28,756 nt of DNA, taken from assembly GCA_016280395.1 (NCBI GenBank), contig JAEEGQ010000162.1:1-28756 (forward strand), given 5' to 3'. Below the pieces are notes generated by a model. That model was not told the origin of the DNA. It worked only from the letters and a program-made list of their open reading frames with translations, and did no database searches. Source of the DNA: Lachnospiraceae bacterium (GTDB lineage: Bacteria > Bacillota > Clostridia > Lachnospirales > Lachnospiraceae). Within the stretch, counting starts at the first letter, position 1. Every line of letters begins with the position of its first letter. The position numbers were made by a program, and so were the translations under genes. Positions 20,744 through 28,099 of this stretch are shown piece after piece.

Positions 20744-21244
20744 TTAGTCAAATAAATCCTGTGGAGGAACTTTTGCAAAGTGCGTATGAGTTGTCTGACC
20801 GACAGTTGGATAGTGATATCTCCAAGCATCATATTCATCCTGGGTGATCTGACCGGATCTGAGTGCTTCGGACTTATCCATCCAATCCATCAGCATGTCA
20901 TAAAACAGCATGCTGTCAGGGTGATTCCTTAAATCAAGATAAAGCTGTGGCTGTCCGTCTTCTGCCTTTTCAATCTTGAGACCGTAGCGATCTTCAATAG
21001 CGAAGAGGGTATGAATAAGCCCTGTGAAAGAATCGATATTGGGAACCTTCAGGGCATCGGGTTTAACGTCAAAAAGCTCAGCCATAGCCTGAACAAGATT
21101 ATCCTTTGGAACACGGTTTTCGCTCTCATATTGAGCCATACGGACATCGGCAGATTTTTCATCAAAGCCGATCTGAGTACCTACATATTTTTGTGTCATT
21201 CTGCGTTTACTACGGAAGAAATGGATTCGTTCTCCTATTGCCAT
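20744..21244 (-). CDS. XRE-family helix-turn-helix transcriptional regulator with a C-terminal domain of about 100 aa and unknown function.
   Basis: The N-terminus MAIGERIHFFRSKRRMTQKYVGTQIG... is a typical HTH_3. The RBS AAAGGAG lies 8 nt upstream of the ATG at 21244. The ORF-track start at 21412 is an extension. Confidence 0.6.
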   Translation of the reverse strand: MAIGERIHFFRSKRRMTQKYVGTQIGFDEKSADVRMAQYESENRVPKDNLVQAMAELFDVKPDALKVPNIDSFTGLIHTLFAIEDRYGLKIEKAEDGQPQLYLDLRNHPDSMLFYDMLMDWMDKSEALRSGQITQDEYDAWRYHYPTVGQTTHTHFAKVPPQDLFD

Positions 21245-21502
21245 AGTGAGGGCTCCTTTCGCTTGATTGAACGGAAATATAACAGATTTCTTCGAAATTC
21301 TGATATCTTTAGGAAATTTAGAGAATGGTGGTTTAAGTTTCGTGGACTTGAGAAAACAAAAACTAGTATTTACGAGCGACTTAAGGAAGCGCAAAAGCTT
21401 GCAGATGAGCATAATGCGCAGTGTAAGAGTTAGCTTAAGAAAAAAAGGAACATGGATTGGAGAGATAGAGAATACAAAACACCGGAACTAAATATCATAG
21501 AA

Positions 21503-21540
21503 AGCAAAGGCTAGTACCAATATTGGGAATAGCCTTTGCT
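21503..21540. repeat. Perfect 11-bp inverted repeat with a nested palindrome. It is either an orphan terminator-like hairpin or a protein-binding site.
   Basis: agcaaaggcta (21503-21513) pairs with tagcctttgct (21530-21540). The loop contains the palindrome ccaatattgg. tattttct follows. Confidence 0.5.
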
Positions 21541-21707
21541 TATTTTCTAGGAAATTTTTTGGATTTTGTGGTTCATATTAGGGATGTACCAAAACATCAT
21601 AATACTTGTAAATTATAAATATAATAAGACCATGTGTTGTAATTACAGAATCATATGATATACTTTCAATAGAGTTTGAAAATGAAAAGAATTCGGAGGG
21701 GGTTATA

Positions 21708-22688
21708 ATGGCTTTTTGCAAATATTGTGGAGAAAAAATAGAGAATAATGCTAAGTTTTGTTCTTCTTGTGGTAAAGCAATAGAACCAAATGAAAAAGAT
21801 ACAAATCAAAAAACTCGAGAAGAAAAAATGAAGAAAAATAAATGTCCAAATTGCGGAGAAATAATGGACGCATTTGAAGTAAAGTGTCCTTCTTGCGGCT
21901 TCGAAATAAGAGATATTGATGCAGCAGAGTCAATAAGAAATTTATCAAAAATAACACAAGAAATTGAAAATACAAGAGAAAATGCTAATCCAATTATTTC
22001 AATGTTTACAGATGGGTTAGTGGTTGGAAAAACTGATTCAAAGATTGTTAGTGTAATTCAAAATACTCCGATCCCTAATACAGTTGAGGATATTGTAGAA
22101 TTTATGATTATAGCATCATCTAATATTAATCCGGCTGCATACGCTAATTTAGGAGTAACTTCGTATGGTGTTGCATCACAGGGTGAAAAGGCGAAATCTA
22201 GAGCTTGGGAGTCCAAATTAAACCAAGCCTATAATAAAGCTAAATTATCCTTTAAAGATGAGGAGCAGTTTGAACAAATACAAAGGATTTATGACGAAAC
22301 ACATGATAAAATCCGTCAAGCGCAAAAAGAATCTAAAAAAGCATATAGTCACATAATGCGAAGCTCACTTTTTATGTTAGTTTTGATGTTTGCGTTTTTG
22401 ATTATACTTGCTGTTGTTTTGAGTATAAGAGATGAAAAAATGATTGATAATGGTGCAATTTGCCCAAGCTACAGTTCGCGTGAATTTAAAGGAATGCAAT
22501 ATGAAGATGTAACAAATATATTAGAAAAGGATGGTTTTACTAATATAGTAACAAAAGGTAGTAAAGGAACTATCATGGATGGATTAGATTCCGGAGAAGT
22601 AATAAAGGTAACTATAGACGGTACTTATTGCACAAAGGGGTCATATGAGGAACCTGATGCGCCAGTTTTAATTGAGTATAAAAAATAG
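21708..22688 (+). CDS. Double zinc-ribbon, single-pass membrane protein with a small C-terminal extracytoplasmic alpha/beta domain (PASTA-like by eye).
   Basis: Two CxxC...CxxC pairs are present (CKYCG...CSSCG and CPNCG...CPSCG). There is one hydrophobic helix (LFMLVLMFAFLIILAVVL). GGAGG is at 21695-21699. The promoter is probably TTGTAA with extended -10 TGATATACT at about 21636-21671. Confidence 0.7.
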   Translation: MAFCKYCGEKIENNAKFCSSCGKAIEPNEKDTNQKTREEKMKKNKCPNCGEIMDAFEVKCPSCGFEIRDIDAAESIRNLSKITQEIENTRENANPIISMFTDGLVVGKTDSKIVSVIQNTPIPNTVEDIVEFMIIASSNINPAAYANLGVTSYGVASQGEKAKSRAWESKLNQAYNKAKLSFKDEEQFEQIQRIYDETHDKIRQAQKESKKAYSHIMRSSLFMLVLMFAFLIILAVVLSIRDEKMIDNGAICPSYSSREFKGMQYEDVTNILEKDGFTNIVTKGSKGTIMDGLDSGEVIKVTIDGTYCTKGSYEEPDAPVLIEYKK

Positions 22689-22943
22689 TGTATTTGGGCA
22701 TGTTCATTGGATTAGGGATGTTAAGTTATTTGATGCTTCTGATAAGTGTTTGTGGTTTATAAGCTTACAGTTATGCTGATATATGGAATGTGTGATGAAC
22801 CAAATGTGAGATGAAATTGATAAATATCCGCAAAAAGTTGCGAATATTTTATGAATTCATGCGAAAAATATTGAATTACTCAAGTGATATGCATAACATT
22901 ATTCTAAATGTATTTTGATTTATTCAATGTAAGGAAGAAAGTG

Positions 22944-23153
22944 ATGGGAATAAGTTACAAAAAAATATGGTTGTTACTAATTGAAAAAGATATTTCTCCA
23001 GCAACATTAAGAAAAGATTTAAATATCGCAACGGGGACAATGACTAAACTACGAAAGAATGAAGAGGTTGCATTGTCTGGATTACTTCGGATATGTAGCT
23101 ATCTGGAATGTAATATAGGTGATATTTGTGATGCTATACCTATAGCTGATTAA
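22944..23153 (+). CDS. Small Cro/C1-type (XRE) HTH DNA-binding protein.
   Basis: The sequence ...ISPATLRKDLNIATGTMTKLRKNEEV... is typical of HTH_26 proteins of about 70 aa. AAGGAAG lies upstream. The ATG at 22944 is preferred over the ORF-track start at 22908. Confidence 0.65.
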   Translation: MGISYKKIWLLLIEKDISPATLRKDLNIATGTMTKLRKNEEVALSGLLRICSYLECNIGDICDAIPIAD

Positions 23154-23193
23154 CTTTAATAGATACTTAATATGTATTTTCGGAGGTATTTTT

Positions 23194-24567
23194 ATGGGCT
23201 TATTTGGAAAAAAGAAAACAAGAGGGTTTATGGATGTCATAAGATGTGATGAGCCTTCATATCTTGTCTGGAAATGGCATCCCGTGGGTTGCCAAGAAGG
23301 AAAAAATAAACGAGAAAATGAAATAAGATGGGGTTCTTCTTTACGTGTAAAAGATGGTGAGGTTGCTGTTTTTGTTTATAAGCAGAAGGATGGAACTGTA
23401 CAGGATTTTATAGAAGGTCCTTTTGATGAAACAATAAAGACAAAAAATCTTCCAGTCCTAATAAATCTAATGGGGGCGTTATATGATGGAAGTTCTCCAT
23501 TTCAAGCTGAAATTTATTTTATTAATCTGGCAAAGATTATACAAGTTAAATTTGGTGTGCCTTATTTTGACGTGTATGATCCTAGATTCTCAGATTTTGG
23601 TGTCCCAGTAGCTGTTCGTGGAACAATAAGTTTTCAAATCAAGGATTATAGAGAGTTTATAAAATTACATAGATTAGGTACATTTAGATTAGAAGATTTC
23701 CAAAATCAAATAAGAGATGTAGTTGTTAGATATGTGAAGGATACTGTAACGAATATTCCAGCTGCAAATGATATCCCGCTAATTCAAATAGAAACAAAAA
23801 CTTCGTTAATAAATGATTCTGTTGAGTTAGATATAAAGGAACGATTACAAGAAGATTTTGGAGTAATAGTTTCAGGAGTTGATATTGGAGCAATAGAAAT
23901 TGATAAATCTAGCGAAGGATATATTAAATTATTATCAGTTACTAGAGATGTTGATAGTGCAATAATATCTGCTCAAAAGGAAGCTAACGTAAAGAACATC
24001 CATGATATGCAACGTATTAATGTTGAAAATTATGAGGAAAGTCTGAGAGTACAGCGTGAAGAAGGGCAATACTCAATGCATAAGGGAACACAGTCTCAGA
24101 ATTTTGCAGCTTATCAAGTTGAAGCTCAAACACAGGTAGGGGTTGCAGGTGCTGAAGCACTAGGTCATATGGGTGAAAATGGAGCTGGCAATATTAGCCT
24201 AGGTGATGGAGGGGGAACTGGATTGAATCCAGCGTCCATGATGGCAGCTATGGCTGTTGGAGGAGCTGTTGGACAAAACCTAGCAGGTACTATGAACAAT
24301 ATGTTAGGAAATGCTCCACAACCATCTAATGGTATTGCTCCGCCACCACTACCAAAAGAATCATTCTTTGTGGCCGTCGCTGGTAAACAGGAAGGACCTT
24401 TTACATTAGATGTACTTTTACAGATGAAAAACAGTGGGACATTTACTTCAGAACAACTAGTATGGCAAGCTGGTATGGAAAATTGGACAAAAGCATCTGA
24501 GGTACAAGCCTTGAAGAGTATGTTCGATATTGATAAAGGAATAACTCCACCACCTATTCCGCAATAA
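23194..24567 (+). CDS. SPFH/band-7 family protein with a low-complexity Gly/Ala linker and a C-terminal GYF-like (DUF4339-type) domain.
   Basis: The N-terminus MGLFGKKKTRGFMDVIRCDEPSYLVWKWHP resembles COG4260 / B. subtilis YdjI-like SPFH proteins (recalled from memory). The C-terminal FFVAVAGKQEGPFTLDVLLQMKNSGTFTSEQLVWQAGMENWTKASEV has the W..G..W GYF-like signature. GGAGG lies upstream. Confidence 0.75.
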   Translation: MGLFGKKKTRGFMDVIRCDEPSYLVWKWHPVGCQEGKNKRENEIRWGSSLRVKDGEVAVFVYKQKDGTVQDFIEGPFDETIKTKNLPVLINLMGALYDGSSPFQAEIYFINLAKIIQVKFGVPYFDVYDPRFSDFGVPVAVRGTISFQIKDYREFIKLHRLGTFRLEDFQNQIRDVVVRYVKDTVTNIPAANDIPLIQIETKTSLINDSVELDIKERLQEDFGVIVSGVDIGAIEIDKSSEGYIKLLSVTRDVDSAIISAQKEANVKNIHDMQRINVENYEESLRVQREEGQYSMHKGTQSQNFAAYQVEAQTQVGVAGAEALGHMGENGAGNISLGDGGGTGLNPASMMAAMAVGGAVGQNLAGTMNNMLGNAPQPSNGIAPPPLPKESFFVAVAGKQEGPFTLDVLLQMKNSGTFTSEQLVWQAGMENWTKASEVQALKSMFDIDKGITPPPIPQ

Positions 24568-24685: not shown

Positions 24686-24822
24686 TAAGAATCGTGTGGG
24701 TTGTAGAACAGTAGGTTTTGGTCGTGTTGCTACAATCATCGAGTAATAACGAGCGAACAGCCCAACCCAAATAGTAAAATCAAGGCTTCCGAGGAATTCC
24801 TCGAGAGCCTTTTTTTATCTTT
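24686..24822 (+). ncRNA. Candidate small RNA of about 130 nt with its own promoter and terminator.
   Basis: An extended -10 TGgTATAAA lies at 24670-24678. A 7-bp closing stem (tgggttg 24697-24703 paired with caaccca 24763-24769) encloses an internal 10-bp hairpin (24701-24735). A strong terminator follows at 24784-24816. No ORF is present. Confidence 0.3.
24784..24816 (+). terminator. Intrinsic terminator.
   Basis: An 11-bp stem (ggcttccgagg paired with cctcgagagcc, one mismatch) has loop AATT, followed by T7. Confidence 0.6.
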
Positions 24823-24872
24823 TATAATATAGTATTAGTGTAAAAAAATTCGTAATGATTCTAATTTAATTC

Positions 24873-24907
24873 TATTTATATAAATAATGACTTTTCACAT
24901 ATAGTGA
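24873..24907 (-). terminator. Perfect 15-bp stem hairpin, the probable terminator of the minus-strand two-gene operon.
   Basis: ataatgacttttcac pairs with gtgaaaagtcattat around loop atata. It lies 14 nt downstream of the 24921 stop on the minus strand. Confidence 0.55.
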
Positions 24908-24920
24908 AAAGTCATTATAA

Positions 24921-25121
24921 TTACCATTTCTTTATTTGTTTTATATCTTCTGCTCGTTGTGGATCGTGATGATATTGTAGTTTCAATTTTACTGTTTCAA
25001 CTATCTCGCTACGAGCTACATCATCTAATTGATAAAAGGATGTTAGTAAATTGTCTACATCTGGCATAGCATTTTTCCATAAAGCATCATAAGAGGTTGA
25101 ATAGAATACTGCAGATATCAT
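24921..25121 (-). CDS. Hypothetical small protein (66 aa), translationally coupled to the upstream HTH gene.
   Basis: An ATGA start/stop overlap lies at 25118-25121. Confidence 0.5.
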   Translation of the reverse strand: MISAVFYSTSYDALWKNAMPDVDNLLTSFYQLDDVARSEIVETVKLKLQYHHDPQRAEDIKQIKKW

Positions 25122-25345
25122 TTTACTCTTGAAGAATCTAACATATCTTTCTTATCATGGAATGTCATGTAAATTTCATCCTCTTTTAATTCACCAGAAA
25201 AAGGAATAGCTGAACATATCTCATTAACATCTATCTCTAATTCATTAGCAATTCGTAAGGCGTAGTCAAATCTTATATTTGTTTCTTTTTGAATAATTGA
25301 ATATAAAGTAGATGCGCTTATACCTGAGGCTTTTGCAACCGGCAT
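25118..25345 (-). CDS. XRE-type HTH regulator. Its N-terminal helix appears to be encoded in another frame (25321-25398), so the gene is possibly frameshifted.
   Basis: The sequence ...KASGISASTLYSIIQKETNIRFDYALRIANELEIDVNEI is an HTH helix 2-3 plus tail. The alternative frame from the ATG at 25398 gives MGDEKRLNEIIDAKGTNI (a helix-1-like peptide) and stops after 26 codons. Confidence 0.5.
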   Translation of the reverse strand: MPVAKASGISASTLYSIIQKETNIRFDYALRIANELEIDVNEICSAIPFSGELKEDEIYMTFHDKKDMLDSSRVK

Positions 25346-25594: not shown

Positions 25595-25972
25595 ATGAAA
25601 TCACATTACATAAGAGATTCAATGATAGCCGATTTGATTCAGCAAGGATATGCAAGAAAAGCTGAATATGGAGTTGGATGGGACACAGTGGATATTAATG
25701 ATGTTGTATCTGTTGTTGCCCCTGGTGCAAAACCAGTTGTGGTTGGGGGTAAGATAATTTACTATAGTGCTGACGGAACTAAGGCAGTTGTCGCTGATGT
25801 TAGTGGATATTTGCGAGTACAAGATTTAACTAAAAAAACCAGAAAACGACAGTACTTAGACCAATTTGGTGACGACGCATATAATGTAGTTGAGAGCAAC
25901 GGAAAAAAACGAGGTAGAAGTAAGTCGGAGTTTCAGAAGGCGACTCATTATATGATTAAAAAGAGAATGTGA
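25595..25972 (+). CDS. Hypothetical basic protein (125 aa).
   Basis: The RBS AAAGGAG lies 7 nt upstream. The C-terminus is Lys/Arg-rich (KKRGRSKSEFQKATHYMIKKRM). I recognise no motif. Confidence 0.6.
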   Translation: MKSHYIRDSMIADLIQQGYARKAEYGVGWDTVDINDVVSVVAPGAKPVVVGGKIIYYSADGTKAVVADVSGYLRVQDLTKKTRKRQYLDQFGDDAYNVVESNGKKRGRSKSEFQKATHYMIKKRM

Positions 25973-25981
25973 GGTGAGTAA

Positions 25982-26341
25982 ATGTTTGTATATTATATGA
26001 ATGTTCCATTAAATAAAATAGGGATAGAAGAATTTGAAGGTTATGATGAAGAAATGTCAAATGTTAAGACATTTGAACTTACTCAAGAGGAGTATGATAT
26101 TTTAAGACAACCTAAAGGCTTATTTCAAGAGTTTGACGAAAGATTCGGAACAATAATTGATGTCTGCGAAGAAGAGCGAATCGTTAATGAAAATTTGAAG
26201 GAGGCATTACAGTCTGCTAATAAAATGTTAAATAAGCAAAAAAATGACATTGCAGAAAAAGCTATTAAAAAAGTTATAGACTCTTTGGAATGTGCTATCC
26301 AGGCGGGAACTTTTTGGGAAATAGATATTTATTTGGAGTAA
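25982..26341 (+). CDS. Hypothetical acidic protein (119 aa).
   Basis: The RBS is GAGGTGAG. The gene starts 10 nt after the preceding stop. The protein is very Glu/Asp-rich. Confidence 0.55.
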   Translation: MFVYYMNVPLNKIGIEEFEGYDEEMSNVKTFELTQEEYDILRQPKGLFQEFDERFGTIIDVCEEERIVNENLKEALQSANKMLNKQKNDIAEKAIKKVIDSLECAIQAGTFWEIDIYLE

Positions 26342-26345
26342 TGCC

Positions 26346-26708
26346 ATGAGTAAATATATTTATCAAAAATTTCTTCTTAACTGTAATTATGAAGACATAA
26401 ATATAAATGACTTCCCTGTTTTTGAGGGTGATGTTAAATGCATACTGGATTATCGCTGCGACTATTGCTTGTTTGATATAAATAAAACATTAATACGAAA
26501 AATAAGTATTGCAGATATCGACGAACAAGTGGATACAGAAGAGGATTGGAATCAATTATTAAAACGGTTAAAAGAATTTGATGTTATTGTTCTCTATGAT
26601 TACCTCGTCAATTCAGCTAATCCGATTATTCAAAGTTATCGTGAAGCAACTTTAAAAGCCTATTTGTATCGATTTCAAAAAAATGAAATAAAAATATGTC
26701 TTGCATAA
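26346..26708 (+). CDS. Hypothetical acidic Cys-containing protein (120 aa).
   Basis: The gene starts 5 nt after the preceding stop with GGAG upstream. It has five Cys, including CxxC (CDYC). Confidence 0.55.
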   Translation: MSKYIYQKFLLNCNYEDININDFPVFEGDVKCILDYRCDYCLFDINKTLIRKISIADIDEQVDTEEDWNQLLKRLKEFDVIVLYDYLVNSANPIIQSYREATLKAYLYRFQKNEIKICLA

Positions 26709-26828: not shown

Positions 26829-26958
26829 TCGCGTTTGTTGTTGCAATATGGTTGAAAAAAGTACTGGTGGAGTACTGTTTGATGAAAATTCAAACCACAC
26901 ATTGCGTGTTCACACACTGAGTGATATAATAAAGAAAACGCAATGCGAGGAGGATGTT

Positions 26959-27201
26959 ATGGATACTGCAAAGGTGATAAGAGAACTACGTGAGAGTGTA
27001 AATATGAATCGAAAAGAGTTTTCGAAACATACGGGGATTCCGGTAAGGACGTTAGAAGACTGGGAAGCAGGCCGTCGTACCCCTCCGGAGTATATTCCGC
27101 GTTTGTTGGCATATCAGCTGAAATATGAGGAATTGATTGGGAAAGGTGTCAAATATGGAGGGGCAAGTGGCGAAAACGGAGCAGATTCAGATAATGGATA
27201 A
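26959..27201 (+). CDS. XRE-family HTH protein (80 aa).
   Basis: The sequence ...ELRESVNMNRKEFSKHTGIPVRTLEDWEAGRRTPPEY... is typical of the family. GAGGAGG lies 5 nt upstream of the ATG at 26959. The ORF-track start at 26848 is an extension. Confidence 0.7.
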   Translation: MDTAKVIRELRESVNMNRKEFSKHTGIPVRTLEDWEAGRRTPPEYIPRLLAYQLKYEELIGKGVKYGGASGENGADSDNG

Positions 27202-28099
27202 TATATCGTTGAAAGTGGAAACTATAGATATTAGGAGTCAAATTCATATCGTACGTGGGAAGCAGGTTATGTTGGATAGTGATCTTGCTATGTTATACAA
27301 GGTCGAAACAGGAGCTCTGAACCGTGCGGTTAAGCGTAATAAGAAACGATTTCCTGAAGACTTTTGTTTCCAACTGTCGGAGGAAGAGTTTTTGAGATGC
27401 CAAAATGGCATCTCAAAGGATAATGACCCAGATGGACGCGGCGGCAGACGATATATGCCGTATGCTTTTACGGAGCAGGGAATATCGATGCTTTCTGCTA
27501 TACTTCGAAGCGATGTAGCAATTAATGTCAGCATAGGTATTATGAGAGCATTTGTGGAAATGCGGAAATTCCTTGCAACAAACTCTCTGATACTGAATCG
27601 CGTCGAAGAATTGGAAGTTAAACAACTGGAATATCAGAAAAGTACCGATGAGAGATTTGATAGGGTGTTTCAGTATATCGAAGATCATGCCGAATCGGAG
27701 CAGAAGATCTTCTTTGACGGGCAGATCTATGATGCGTTTAGTTTGATTACAACTATTATACAGAAGGCCAAAAGTGATATTGTATTGATTGATGGATATG
27801 TGGATGTGAACACGCTGAACATTTTGGCGAAGAAGAATACCGGTGTTGATGTTACAATTTTTACATATGCCAGCGCACCGCTTACGAAAAAAGATGTGGA
27901 GATTTTTAATGCGCAGTATCCGACACTGACTGTTAAAAAGACACAGGTATTTCATGATAGATTTATTATACTGGATGGGAAGACGGTTTATCATATAGGG
28001 GCTTCTATTAAGGATGCCGGCAAGAAGTGTTTTGGTATTTCACTGATAAATGATTCGAGCATTGTGTTAGATATACTGAATAGATTGAAAACGATTTAA
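27194..28099 (+). CDS. ORF6N plus ORF6C domain protein (phage antirepressor-like / KilAC-type).
   Basis: The N-terminal IHIVRGKQVMLDSDLAMLYKVETGALNRAVKRNKKRFPEDFCFQLSEEEF matches the ORF6N signature as I recall it. The C-terminal half resembles ORF6C. An ATGGATAA start/stop overlap with the preceding HTH gene favours the 27194 start. Alternative starts are 27155 and 27137. Confidence 0.7.
   Translation: MDNISLKVETIDIRSQIHIVRGKQVMLDSDLAMLYKVETGALNRAVKRNKKRFPEDFCFQLSEEEFLRCQNGISKDNDPDGRGGRRYMPYAFTEQGISMLSAILRSDVAINVSIGIMRAFVEMRKFLATNSLILNRVEELEVKQLEYQKSTDERFDRVFQYIEDHAESEQKIFFDGQIYDAFSLITTIIQKAKSDIVLIDGYVDVNTLNILAKKNTGVDVTIFTYASAPLTKKDVEIFNAQYPTLTVKKTQVFHDRFIILDGKTVYHIGASIKDAGKKCFGISLINDSSIVLDILNRLKTI

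Follow-up and report, generated by a model that had tools for sequence, protein, structure and literature searches.

A mobile three-gene module joins a constant SPFH-GYF protein and its putative regulator to an exchangeable zinc-ribbon membrane protein

The stretch of DNA analyzed here, called the window throughout, comprises 28,756 nucleotides (nt) of a Lachnospiraceae bacterium (assembly GCA_016280395.1, contig JAEEGQ010000162.1, positions 1 to 28,756, forward strand). Downstream of guaA it carries three co-directional genes, encoding a zinc-ribbon membrane protein (ZnR), a small helix-turn-helix (HTH) protein and an SPFH protein with a C-terminal GYF domain (SPFH-GYF). Together they constitute a conserved and widely spread mobile module. 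Its genes and signals are the following.

21637..21664, plus strand: promoter-like site before ZnR (TTGTAA, 16 nt, TG-TATACT), matched by a consensus scan only
~21695-21702, plus strand: ribosome-binding site of ZnR, GGAGGGGG, read from the sequence
21708-22688, plus strand: ZnR gene, 326 aa, called as an open reading frame (ORF)
22828..22843, no strand assigned: operator-like palindrome CCGCAAAAAGTTGCGA, 16 bp, family consensus TCGCAA-N4-TTGCGA, 27 nt before the -35 box
22871..22899, plus strand: putative HTH-SPFH promoter, with -35 TTGAAT (22871-22876), a 17-nt spacer and -10 TAACAT (22894-22899)
22908-23153, plus strand: longest ORF of the HTH gene, 81 aa; preferred start at the ATG of 22944 (22944..23153), 69 aa
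23194-24567, plus strand: SPFH-GYF gene, 457 aa, ORF call
24784..24816, plus strand: intrinsic-terminator-like hairpin GGCTTCCGAGG...CCTCGAGAGCC with a run of seven T, found by inverted repeat search and in the sequence

The ORF calls agree with the first-pass annotation of this DNA on three co-directional genes, which are separated by 255 nt (ZnR to HTH) and 40 nt (HTH to SPFH) if the HTH gene starts at 22944. This ATG is almost certainly the true start, since the ribosome-binding site AAGGAAG precedes it and the homologues are 69-76 aa long. The domains which that annotation had named, a double zinc ribbon, a Cro-like HTH, SPFH and GYF, were all recovered by Pfam. ZnR matches Zn_Ribbon_1 (5.9e-11) and DZR (1e-7), and the 69-aa protein is a Cro/C1-type, VanU-like HTH of family HTH_26 (1.3e-16) that reaches 8e-19 against the NCBIfam VanU model, under the cut-off of that model. 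The third protein matches Band_7_1 (PF13421) over aa 39-238 (nt 23308-23907; 7.3e-25, 88.3 bits against a cut-off of 24) and GYF_2 over aa 392-440 (nt 24367-24513; 1.4e-14, 54 bits against a cut-off of 25.8).

Homologues of SPFH-GYF were counted after clustering at 90% identity, and the counts are lower bounds: at least 8000 such clusters have the SPFH+GYF_2 architecture, mostly 65-70% identical to the query over the full length. Clustered at 50%, the family comprises 188 clusters with E <= 1e-30. A scan of one genome per species gave at least 430 genomes with a relative of SPFH-GYF, and 80 loci from Clostridia, Bacilli, Streptococcus equinus, Gardnerella, Actinomyces, Peptoniphilus and Sedimentibacter were kept for neighbourhood counts. 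Cultured carriers include Streptococcus equinus ATCC 9812 (L039), Gemmiger gallinarum DSM 109015 (L083), Ruminococcus flavefaciens YAD2003 (L016, without the HTH gene) and Gardnerella DNF00502 (L051). In 78 of the 80 loci the gene immediately preceding SPFH belongs to the ZnR family; a small HTH gene, 72-89% identical to that of the window, is found upstream in the same direction in 71. The remaining nine comprise four loci that are short of upstream sequence (850-2037 nt), four true absences, and L059, where the SPFH gene has no ORF call and the upstream span is hence not definable. Beyond these genes the flanks are unconserved, the next commonest neighbours being serine recombinases (16 loci), tyrosine integrases (13), TnpV (12), guaA (5) and primase-like genes (5).

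These counts bear out the expectation that the three genes stay neighbours in other genomes. They also speak to the simplest alternative, namely that unrelated genes came to lie side by side in an island by chance. The window itself lends this idea some colour, as ZnR is 255 nt away from the HTH gene and has a promoter-like site of its own. Nonetheless, adjacency is kept in 78 (ZnR) and 71 (HTH) of the 80 loci while the rest of the surroundings varies, and this conserved synteny refutes the explanation, to which we give practically no credence.

The order of the genes is less constant than their company. It is usually HTH, ZnR, SPFH, and the order ZnR, HTH, SPFH of the window is atypical. Its nearest relatives, P0002 (83% identical) and P0003 (70%), likewise have HTH and SPFH next to each other in this order, with ZnR located downstream of SPFH in the loci of P0003. 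Given the promoter-like site before it, a consensus match, ZnR would here have a transcript of its own, separate from the HTH-controlled promoter.

Further genes accompany the module in some loci. In about 28 of the 80, another member of the zinc-ribbon cluster starts a few nt past the SPFH stop codon (for example L083 9317-11428 and L021 9384-11501). Many of these proteins have 630-705 aa, one zinc ribbon, three transmembrane helices and DUF6591 and DUF4839 ectodomains, while some of the cluster members are shorter unrelated ORFs; the window has no such gene. The three-helix protein might be a second membrane partner resembling SamH of Bacillus subtilis. In about eight loci (L018 5453-5905 and similar) a 150-aa protein without a Pfam match is encoded between the HTH and ZnR genes, and ZnR can there be short (210 aa) and devoid of a transmembrane helix.

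The three components differ strongly in conservation. Median identity to the window amounts to about 81% for HTH, 64% for SPFH-GYF and 35% for the cytosolic part of ZnR. Among pairs of loci whose SPFH proteins are 85-95% identical, the median global identity of ZnR is 16.5%. L018 and L034, for instance, have SPFH proteins that are 95.5% identical next to ZnR proteins of 210 and 549 aa that share 37% over 211 residues, and in L024 and L042 the corresponding values are 94.7% and 30%. On the level of DNA, identity of 90-92% sets in at the SPFH start codon or within about 20 nt of it, and the ZnR gene just upstream has little or no similarity. One pair with this degree of SPFH identity, L061 and L050, comes from metagenome-assembled genomes assigned to Ruminococcus and Porcipelethomonas. 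Since ZnR is dissimilar even where SPFH is nearly identical, it represents an exchangeable, fast-diversifying cassette beside a constant regulator and scaffold.

The module is cargo of integrative elements, in the window at guaA. Across the loci it is accompanied by recombinases, TnpV, relaxases and junctions of the guaA or rumA type, and some copies are reduced to a minimal cassette next to a recombinase remnant. A phage gene was considered and rejected, as a single metagenomic record was found among 50,697 phage records and two contigs among the 2.9 million of IMG/VR. Likewise, a typical plasmid gene was rejected after a plasmid search that gave only distant Band_7_1 relatives.

In the window, the left 20.5 kb are a core cluster of nitrogen and nucleotide metabolism (asnB, glnA type III, amt-PII, gltBD, pyrG, carAB, purA, guaA). 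The GC content of this core (1-20511) is 0.51, that of the module 0.32-0.37 and that of the island 0.35; because it drops to about 0.35 past guaA, the module can be placed in an island that abuts the 3' end of that gene, in accord with the AT-rich island proposed initially. The window, whose contig stops before the island does, contains no direct repeat of the guaA end that resembles an att site, and no tRNA gene was found at the island border. Across loci the GC content of the SPFH gene shows no uniform offset from its flanks, and the compositional argument for recent transfer therefore applies to the window only.

This evidence on exchange and mobility bears on a rival explanation, in which the module is a membrane-homeostasis or abiotic-stress system like SamGHI of B. 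subtilis that hitchhikes on mobile elements, and in which the variability of ZnR reflects adaptation to the envelope of the host. The architecture does parallel that of SamG and SamI, for which the published phenotypes lie in membrane fluidity, in where peptidoglycan is synthesised, and in biofilm and motility (PMC8581546; bioRxiv 10.64898/2026.02.06.704340). Wall-facing ectodomains, the PASTA-like one among them, would suit the matching of a host envelope, and some copies stand among core genes, such as L090 beside comEC. On the other hand, near-identical SPFH genes (90-92% in DNA) with unrelated ZnR genes, in at least one case (L061 and L050) in genomes assigned to different genera, indicate rapid exchange and not slow adaptation. 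Recombinases, mobilisation genes and defence genes prevail in the flanks, and a family that is abundant yet compact (the 188 clusters at 50%) is typical of recently spreading accessory genes. We consider homeostasis a rather improbable account.

A candidate DNA site accompanies the small HTH gene. The palindrome in the window, present in one copy only, is the predicted HTH target TCGCAAGAAGTTGCGA. With up to two mismatches it recurs in 59 of 72 HTH upstream regions, compared with 0.4% of shuffled sequences, and in an alignment of these regions TTGACA-N17-TATAAT is found at the place that matches the putative promoter of the window. Palindrome and -35 box are most often 28 nt apart across loci, and the palindrome is centred some 70 nt ahead of the presumed start site. 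The loci, 1.04 Mb in total, hold 55 sites that deviate from the consensus at no more than one position; 54 of them immediately precede the module, and the palindrome is not present upstream of the module in the four loci that truly have no HTH gene. Each locus has one operator copy within 8 kb on either side, always before the operon itself, and visual inspection of the HTH upstream regions gave no consistent second half-site beside the -35 box. The number of operator mismatches does not correlate with HTH identity to the window (Spearman rho -0.06), which is an uninformative check. Because the palindrome strictly co-occurs with the HTH gene, it is most readily understood as the cognate operator of the HTH protein, which would regulate its own operon; judged from the sequence, the protein would bind this operator and either activate or repress the operon. 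At the other end, the region 24770-24830 around the terminator-like hairpin folds with -20.6 kcal/mol (RNAfold). The hairpin likely ends the HTH-SPFH transcript and is likely shared with convergent minus-strand genes.

Fusions of module parts also bear on how the components belong together. On the Comamonas odontotermitis plasmid NZ_CP083452.1 (L088 3905-6385), a distant Band_7_1 protein carries HTH_17 at its C-terminus, and the next gene encodes a TFIIB-type zinc-ribbon protein; a small gene annotated as 'glycine zipper domain' adjoins the fusion gene. In a protein from a Butyrivibrio plasmid, Band_7_1 is followed by a double zinc ribbon (DZR) at the C-terminus, and in P0386 a Cys-rich N-terminus is followed by Band_7_1 and GYF_2. 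The recurrence of the triad in fusions supports a functional coupling of SPFH, zinc ribbon and HTH. In addition, the coiled-coil/Gly-Ala-Met/GYF tail of the SPFH protein is joined to a BlaR1-type Peptidase_M56 sensor in P0371 (390 aa) and to an OB-fold domain in P0395 (397 aa), and hence is a portable module.

Some of these observations would also fit a signal-transduction device, in which ZnR and SPFH-GYF sequester or release the HTH protein by a logic like that of PspA-PspF or BlaR-BlaI, and the output is transcription of the operon and possibly of mobile-element genes. HTH is the most conserved component (about 81% identity), one distant Band_7_1 protein ends in an HTH domain, P0371 attaches the tail to a sensor-protease, and SamI is described as a brake on SamGH signalling (bioRxiv 10.64898/2026.02.06.704340). 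However, with a single operator per locus within 8 kb on either side no regulon is visible, a physical link of HTH to SPFH or ZnR is without support, and P0371 is possibly a fragment or a rare fusion. We regard such a device as very unlikely.

ZnR is predicted to be a membrane receptor with its N-terminus inside and its C-terminus outside the cell. It has two CxxC...CxxC zinc ribbons at aa 4-21 and 46-63 (CxxC at residues 4, 18, 46 and 60) and a single strong hydrophobic helix at aa 222-240 (nt 22371-22427; hydropathy 3.16). The AlphaFold2 (AF2) model, with a predicted local distance difference test score (pLDDT) of 87.9, consists of the two zinc ribbons, a helical bundle (aa 72-181), a long helix that spans the membrane and a small alpha/beta ectodomain. 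The single transmembrane helix and small alpha/beta domain described earlier are thus upheld, and the ectodomain (aa 257-325, nt 22476-22682) can be specified as PASTA-like in fold in the window copy, with a match to Pfam PASTA at E = 0.02, which is under threshold. This kind of ectodomain is common to only 8 of the 80 loci. Relatives have one to five transmembrane helices or none, followed by DUF6591, DUF4839 or LRR_5 domains or long unassigned regions. In an alignment of 50 homologues, the eight cysteines as well as R68, P123, A166, W167, K170, Q173 and K177 are invariant. Four of these residues, W167, K170, Q173 and K177, follow each other with helical spacing on one helix (158-181), from which we infer an interaction surface. 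The protein also has a PIPN motif.

SPFH-GYF belongs to the divergent Band_7_1 subfamily of the YdjI/SamI type. Behind the SPFH domain it has a long helix (aa 241-328), a Gly/Ala/Met-rich helix (aa 346-371, nt 24229-24306; hydropathy 1.03) and the GYF_2 domain, which is preceded by the proline motif PPPLP (aa 383-387) and followed by PPPIP at the C-terminus (aa 452-456). P383-P385, P453 and P456 are invariant in the homologue alignment. The Gly/Ala/Met-rich segment, initially taken as a low-complexity linker, is more than that, as it holds many invariant residues and is helical by AF2 prediction. No transmembrane segment was detected in the protein (the highest 19-residue hydropathy is 1.11), and its predicted location is cytosolic, with no intrinsic membrane anchor. 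The AF2 model has a pLDDT of 61, with low confidence at the N-terminus. Searched against the PDB with Foldseek, the SPFH domain and long helix resemble stomatin, flotillin, HflK/C, prohibitin and QmcA (E 1e-5 to 1e-3), and the GYF domain resembles GltJ, GIGYF and Smy2. A profile of the family matched the GltJ GYF structure 7z3c at 1.5e-7 and no SPFH chain of the PDB at E <= 0.01. In one homologue, P0011, 34 residues of the SPFH domain are duplicated in tandem (DFAVPVAVRGT...FIKLHRL repeated; alignment columns 141-174).

The surroundings of the module are suggestive of defence. In the window, a homologue of the single-gene PADLOC defence candidate PDC-S05 (27137-28099, 2e-125) follows 2.5 kb downstream. 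In L085 (4842-10984), and also in L086 and L087, all carrying 70%-identical P0003 relatives, the operon consists of HTH, SPFH-GYF, a 1252-aa helicase-nuclease with DUF4011/AAA_11/AAA_12/MTES_1575 domains that matches PADLOC PDC-S37 (2e-173) and Hhe (1e-93), and a 780-aa ZnR with LRR_5 repeats; ParA, ParB and an integrase are encoded close by. Among the 262 genes that flank the 80 loci are AbiLi, PtuA, PARIS/Septu-type ATPases, type I and type IV restriction enzymes, a retron, AbiD, PDC-S01, PDC-S22 and several methyltransferases. When the three proteins were scanned against PADLOC, NCBIfam and PHROGs, no named system emerged, and distant SPFH relatives had no match in PADLOC either. The first-pass annotation, which could not assign the module to any named defence system, was right in this respect, and its suggestion of an abortive-infection or defence function is one that the context alone would prompt.

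In such an abortive-infection system ZnR would detect phage at the envelope, the Gly/Ala/Met helices of SPFH-GYF would, like glycine zippers, insert into the membrane, depolarise it and kill the infected cell, and HTH would restrain the toxic operon in the manner of the C proteins that control restriction enzymes. The moderately hydrophobic helix rich in invariant residues, the autoregulation through a palindrome upstream of the -35 box, the hypervariable sensor-like ZnR gene, the defence genes beside the operon and in relatives inside it, and the near absence of the cassette from phage genomes would all agree with this. Yet pore formation is known for no SPFH protein, the hydropathy of the helix is far under transmembrane level, PADLOC returned no match and toxicity is without support. 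Moreover, a comparable low-complexity region is present in SamI, the closest relative studied, which works as scaffold or brake, not as toxin (bioRxiv 10.64898/2026.02.06.704340). We judge a suicidal output unlikely.

A bolder, and in our eyes doubtful, extension is that the module is a membrane-based immune system of a new class, operating in Gram-positive gut bacteria and made of swappable ZnR receptors, an SPFH-GYF cage and an autoregulatory HTH. Here the library of ZnR proteins, with PASTA-like, leucine-rich repeat and DUF6591/DUF4839 ectodomains, would detect attack by phage or bacteriocins at the cell surface and signal via the conserved cytosolic patch to the invariant SPFH-GYF cage, which would seal, compartmentalise or collapse the membrane. 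If true, SPFH proteins would have a direct role in immunity.

The reading we favour, with a probability of roughly 0.45, is an autoregulated cassette for surveillance or protection of the envelope, in which ZnR would dock an SPFH-GYF assembly at the inner membrane face and control it. In this scheme, HTH would bind TCGCAA-N4-TTGCGA before its own promoter and autoregulate the operon. ZnR would be a single-pass receptor with zinc ribbons and helical bundle in the cytoplasm and an interchangeable ectodomain, PASTA-like in the window, toward the cell wall, and would dock and control the soluble SPFH-GYF protein. With its SPFH domain and long helix mediating oligomerisation, the latter may form a ring or cage beneath the membrane, where the Gly/Ala/Met-rich helix and the PPPxP-GYF-PPxP tail could cross-link subunits or recruit a proline-rich partner. 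The output would be local surveillance or stabilisation of the envelope. As the module is mobile, swaps its receptor often and lies among defence genes, we infer that it was selected by agents of biological origin that target the envelope (phage, bacteriocins, wall-active compounds) and not by abiotic stress.

The envelope-facing ectodomains, PASTA-like here and DUF6591, DUF4839 or LRR_5 in other members, argue for this scheme. Several points weigh against it. The cytosolic domain of ZnR is only about 35% conserved beside a near-constant SPFH and has few invariant residues, which is awkward if it docks SPFH. The comparison of ZnR with SamG covers the zinc ribbon. In this window ZnR is outside the HTH-controlled operon, and the SPFH-GYF model is of low confidence. 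PspA, the effector arm in Bacillus, is absent, which leaves the output without counterpart. As to defence, HTH and SPFH-GYF have no match in PADLOC-DB v2 and ZnR gave spurious zinc-ribbon matches only. The defence neighbours amount to about 20 of the 262 flanking genes, an uncontrolled count, and mobile-element cargo is rich in defence genes anyway. Finally, the literature searched, a metagenomic defence screen included, contains no study of the SPFH-GYF module and no experiment on the family.

The island holds further genes. At its border, directly past guaA, lies an XRE-type HTH protein on the minus strand (20744-21412; probably 163-166 aa from an internal MAIGER) with weak matches to the PADLOC Control_protein model and to RstR-type repressors; a palindrome with 20-nt arms (21502-21541) separates its gene from ZnR. 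Convergent with the SPFH gene, the minus-strand pair at 24921-25345 encodes a 75-aa HTH_3 protein and a 66-aa protein of no assigned family with a 4-nt overlap, a layout like that of toxin-antitoxin pairs, and a perfect 13-bp inverted repeat AATGACTTTTCAC...GTGAAAAGTCATT (~24878-24908) is found just beyond the stop codon of this pair. Three tightly packed small ORFs of 125, 119 and 120 aa follow on the plus strand (25595-26708); they have no significant match in Pfam, NCBIfam, PADLOC or PHROGs, and the label 'toxin-like cassette' given to them at first is neither confirmed nor refuted. Further on, the gene of a 117-aa HTH_3 protein (26848-27201, plus strand) overlaps the start of that of the 320-aa ORF6N/anti-repressor-like protein (27137-28099, plus strand), the PDC-S05 homologue mentioned above.

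SPFH proteins are universal and their function is poorly understood, the sole studied bacterial member of the soluble subtype being SamI/YdjI, which was characterised recently. The module described here is a compact, self-regulated three-gene version of a SamI-type system, abundant in gut Firmicutes and moving between genera. Its combination of a constant scaffold and regulator with an exchangeable receptor opens ways to test what ZnR senses, how SPFH is controlled, which ligand GYF binds and whether SPFH proteins play a role in defence. Should the defence reading be true, the module would be a widespread, previously unlisted system of the human and animal gut microbiome.

Compared with known systems, the module shares single features with several of them. 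Its PASTA-like ectodomain recalls the sensors PknB, StkP and PrkC, from which ZnR differs in having no kinase domain, a Pfam PASTA score under threshold and such an ectodomain in just the 8 of 80 loci. Restriction-modification C proteins act on palindromic C-boxes and, as here, a small HTH gene leads a mobile operon with a palindrome just upstream of the promoter. In contrast to C proteins, the module HTH has no PADLOC Control_protein match, its operator is centred about 70 nt upstream and a second proximal site is not evident. With HflK/C-FtsH, the QmcA-YbbJ/SPFH-NfeD pairs and flotillins it shares the SPFH fold and the long wall-forming helix, from which an oligomeric scaffold may be expected; unlike these classical SPFH operons, it has no transmembrane anchor or hairpin and no NfeD or protease partner.

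The GYF domain leads to GltJ of Myxococcus gliding motility, where it binds a proline-rich sequence (PMC11135422). The ZnR-linker-GYF switch of GltJ (PMC11135422; PDB 7z3c) has a homologous GYF_2 domain and likewise combines zinc ribbon and GYF as a cytoplasmic pair at a membrane receptor. In the module, by contrast, the two are on separate proteins, GYF is fused to SPFH, and neither the partners MglA, MglB and AglZ nor a link to motility is found. The SPFH+GYF architecture itself, with proline-rich flanks of GYF and genes for transmembrane proteins nearby, was already noted by Balaji and Aravind in 2007 (PMC2034487), who listed it but described neither the grouping of three genes nor operator, mobility and ZnR hypervariability. 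What is new here is the operator, the hypervariable receptor cassette and the mobile SPFH-ZnR variant, which were undescribed before.

The closest parallel is the PspA-SamGHI system of B. subtilis, and the analogy to YdjG and YdjI drawn in the first-pass annotation is apt by the literature (PMC8581546; bioRxiv 10.64898/2026.02.06.704340). There, YdjI (SamI) reaches the membrane only with YdjG/YdjH (SamG/SamH), SamG/YdjG has an N-terminal zinc ribbon, SamI recruits PspA and restrains SamGH signalling, and loss of SamG or SamH leads to mislocalised cell-wall synthesis under stress (PMC8581546; PMC9239133; bioRxiv 10.64898/2026.02.06.704340). In both systems a soluble Band_7_1 SPFH protein is encoded beside a zinc-ribbon membrane protein, with a link to the envelope and cell wall. 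The differences are equally clear. The module has neither PspA nor, in the window, a SamH-like partner. The absence of PspA, YdjH and NfeD recorded at first was borne out, PspA being found neither in the window nor among the 25 commonest neighbour families on either side of the loci. In a database search, no match bore the name YdjG. Where SamI ends in a zinc finger, the SPFH tail of the window is GYF_2 with PPPxP flanks; where SamGHI is under sigma-W control, the module has its own Cro-like HTH and operator; and unlike SamGHI it is mobile, with a hypervariable ZnR. Because PspA, SamH and the zinc finger are missing, we do not file the module as a SamGHI system but as a mobile variant of that kind.

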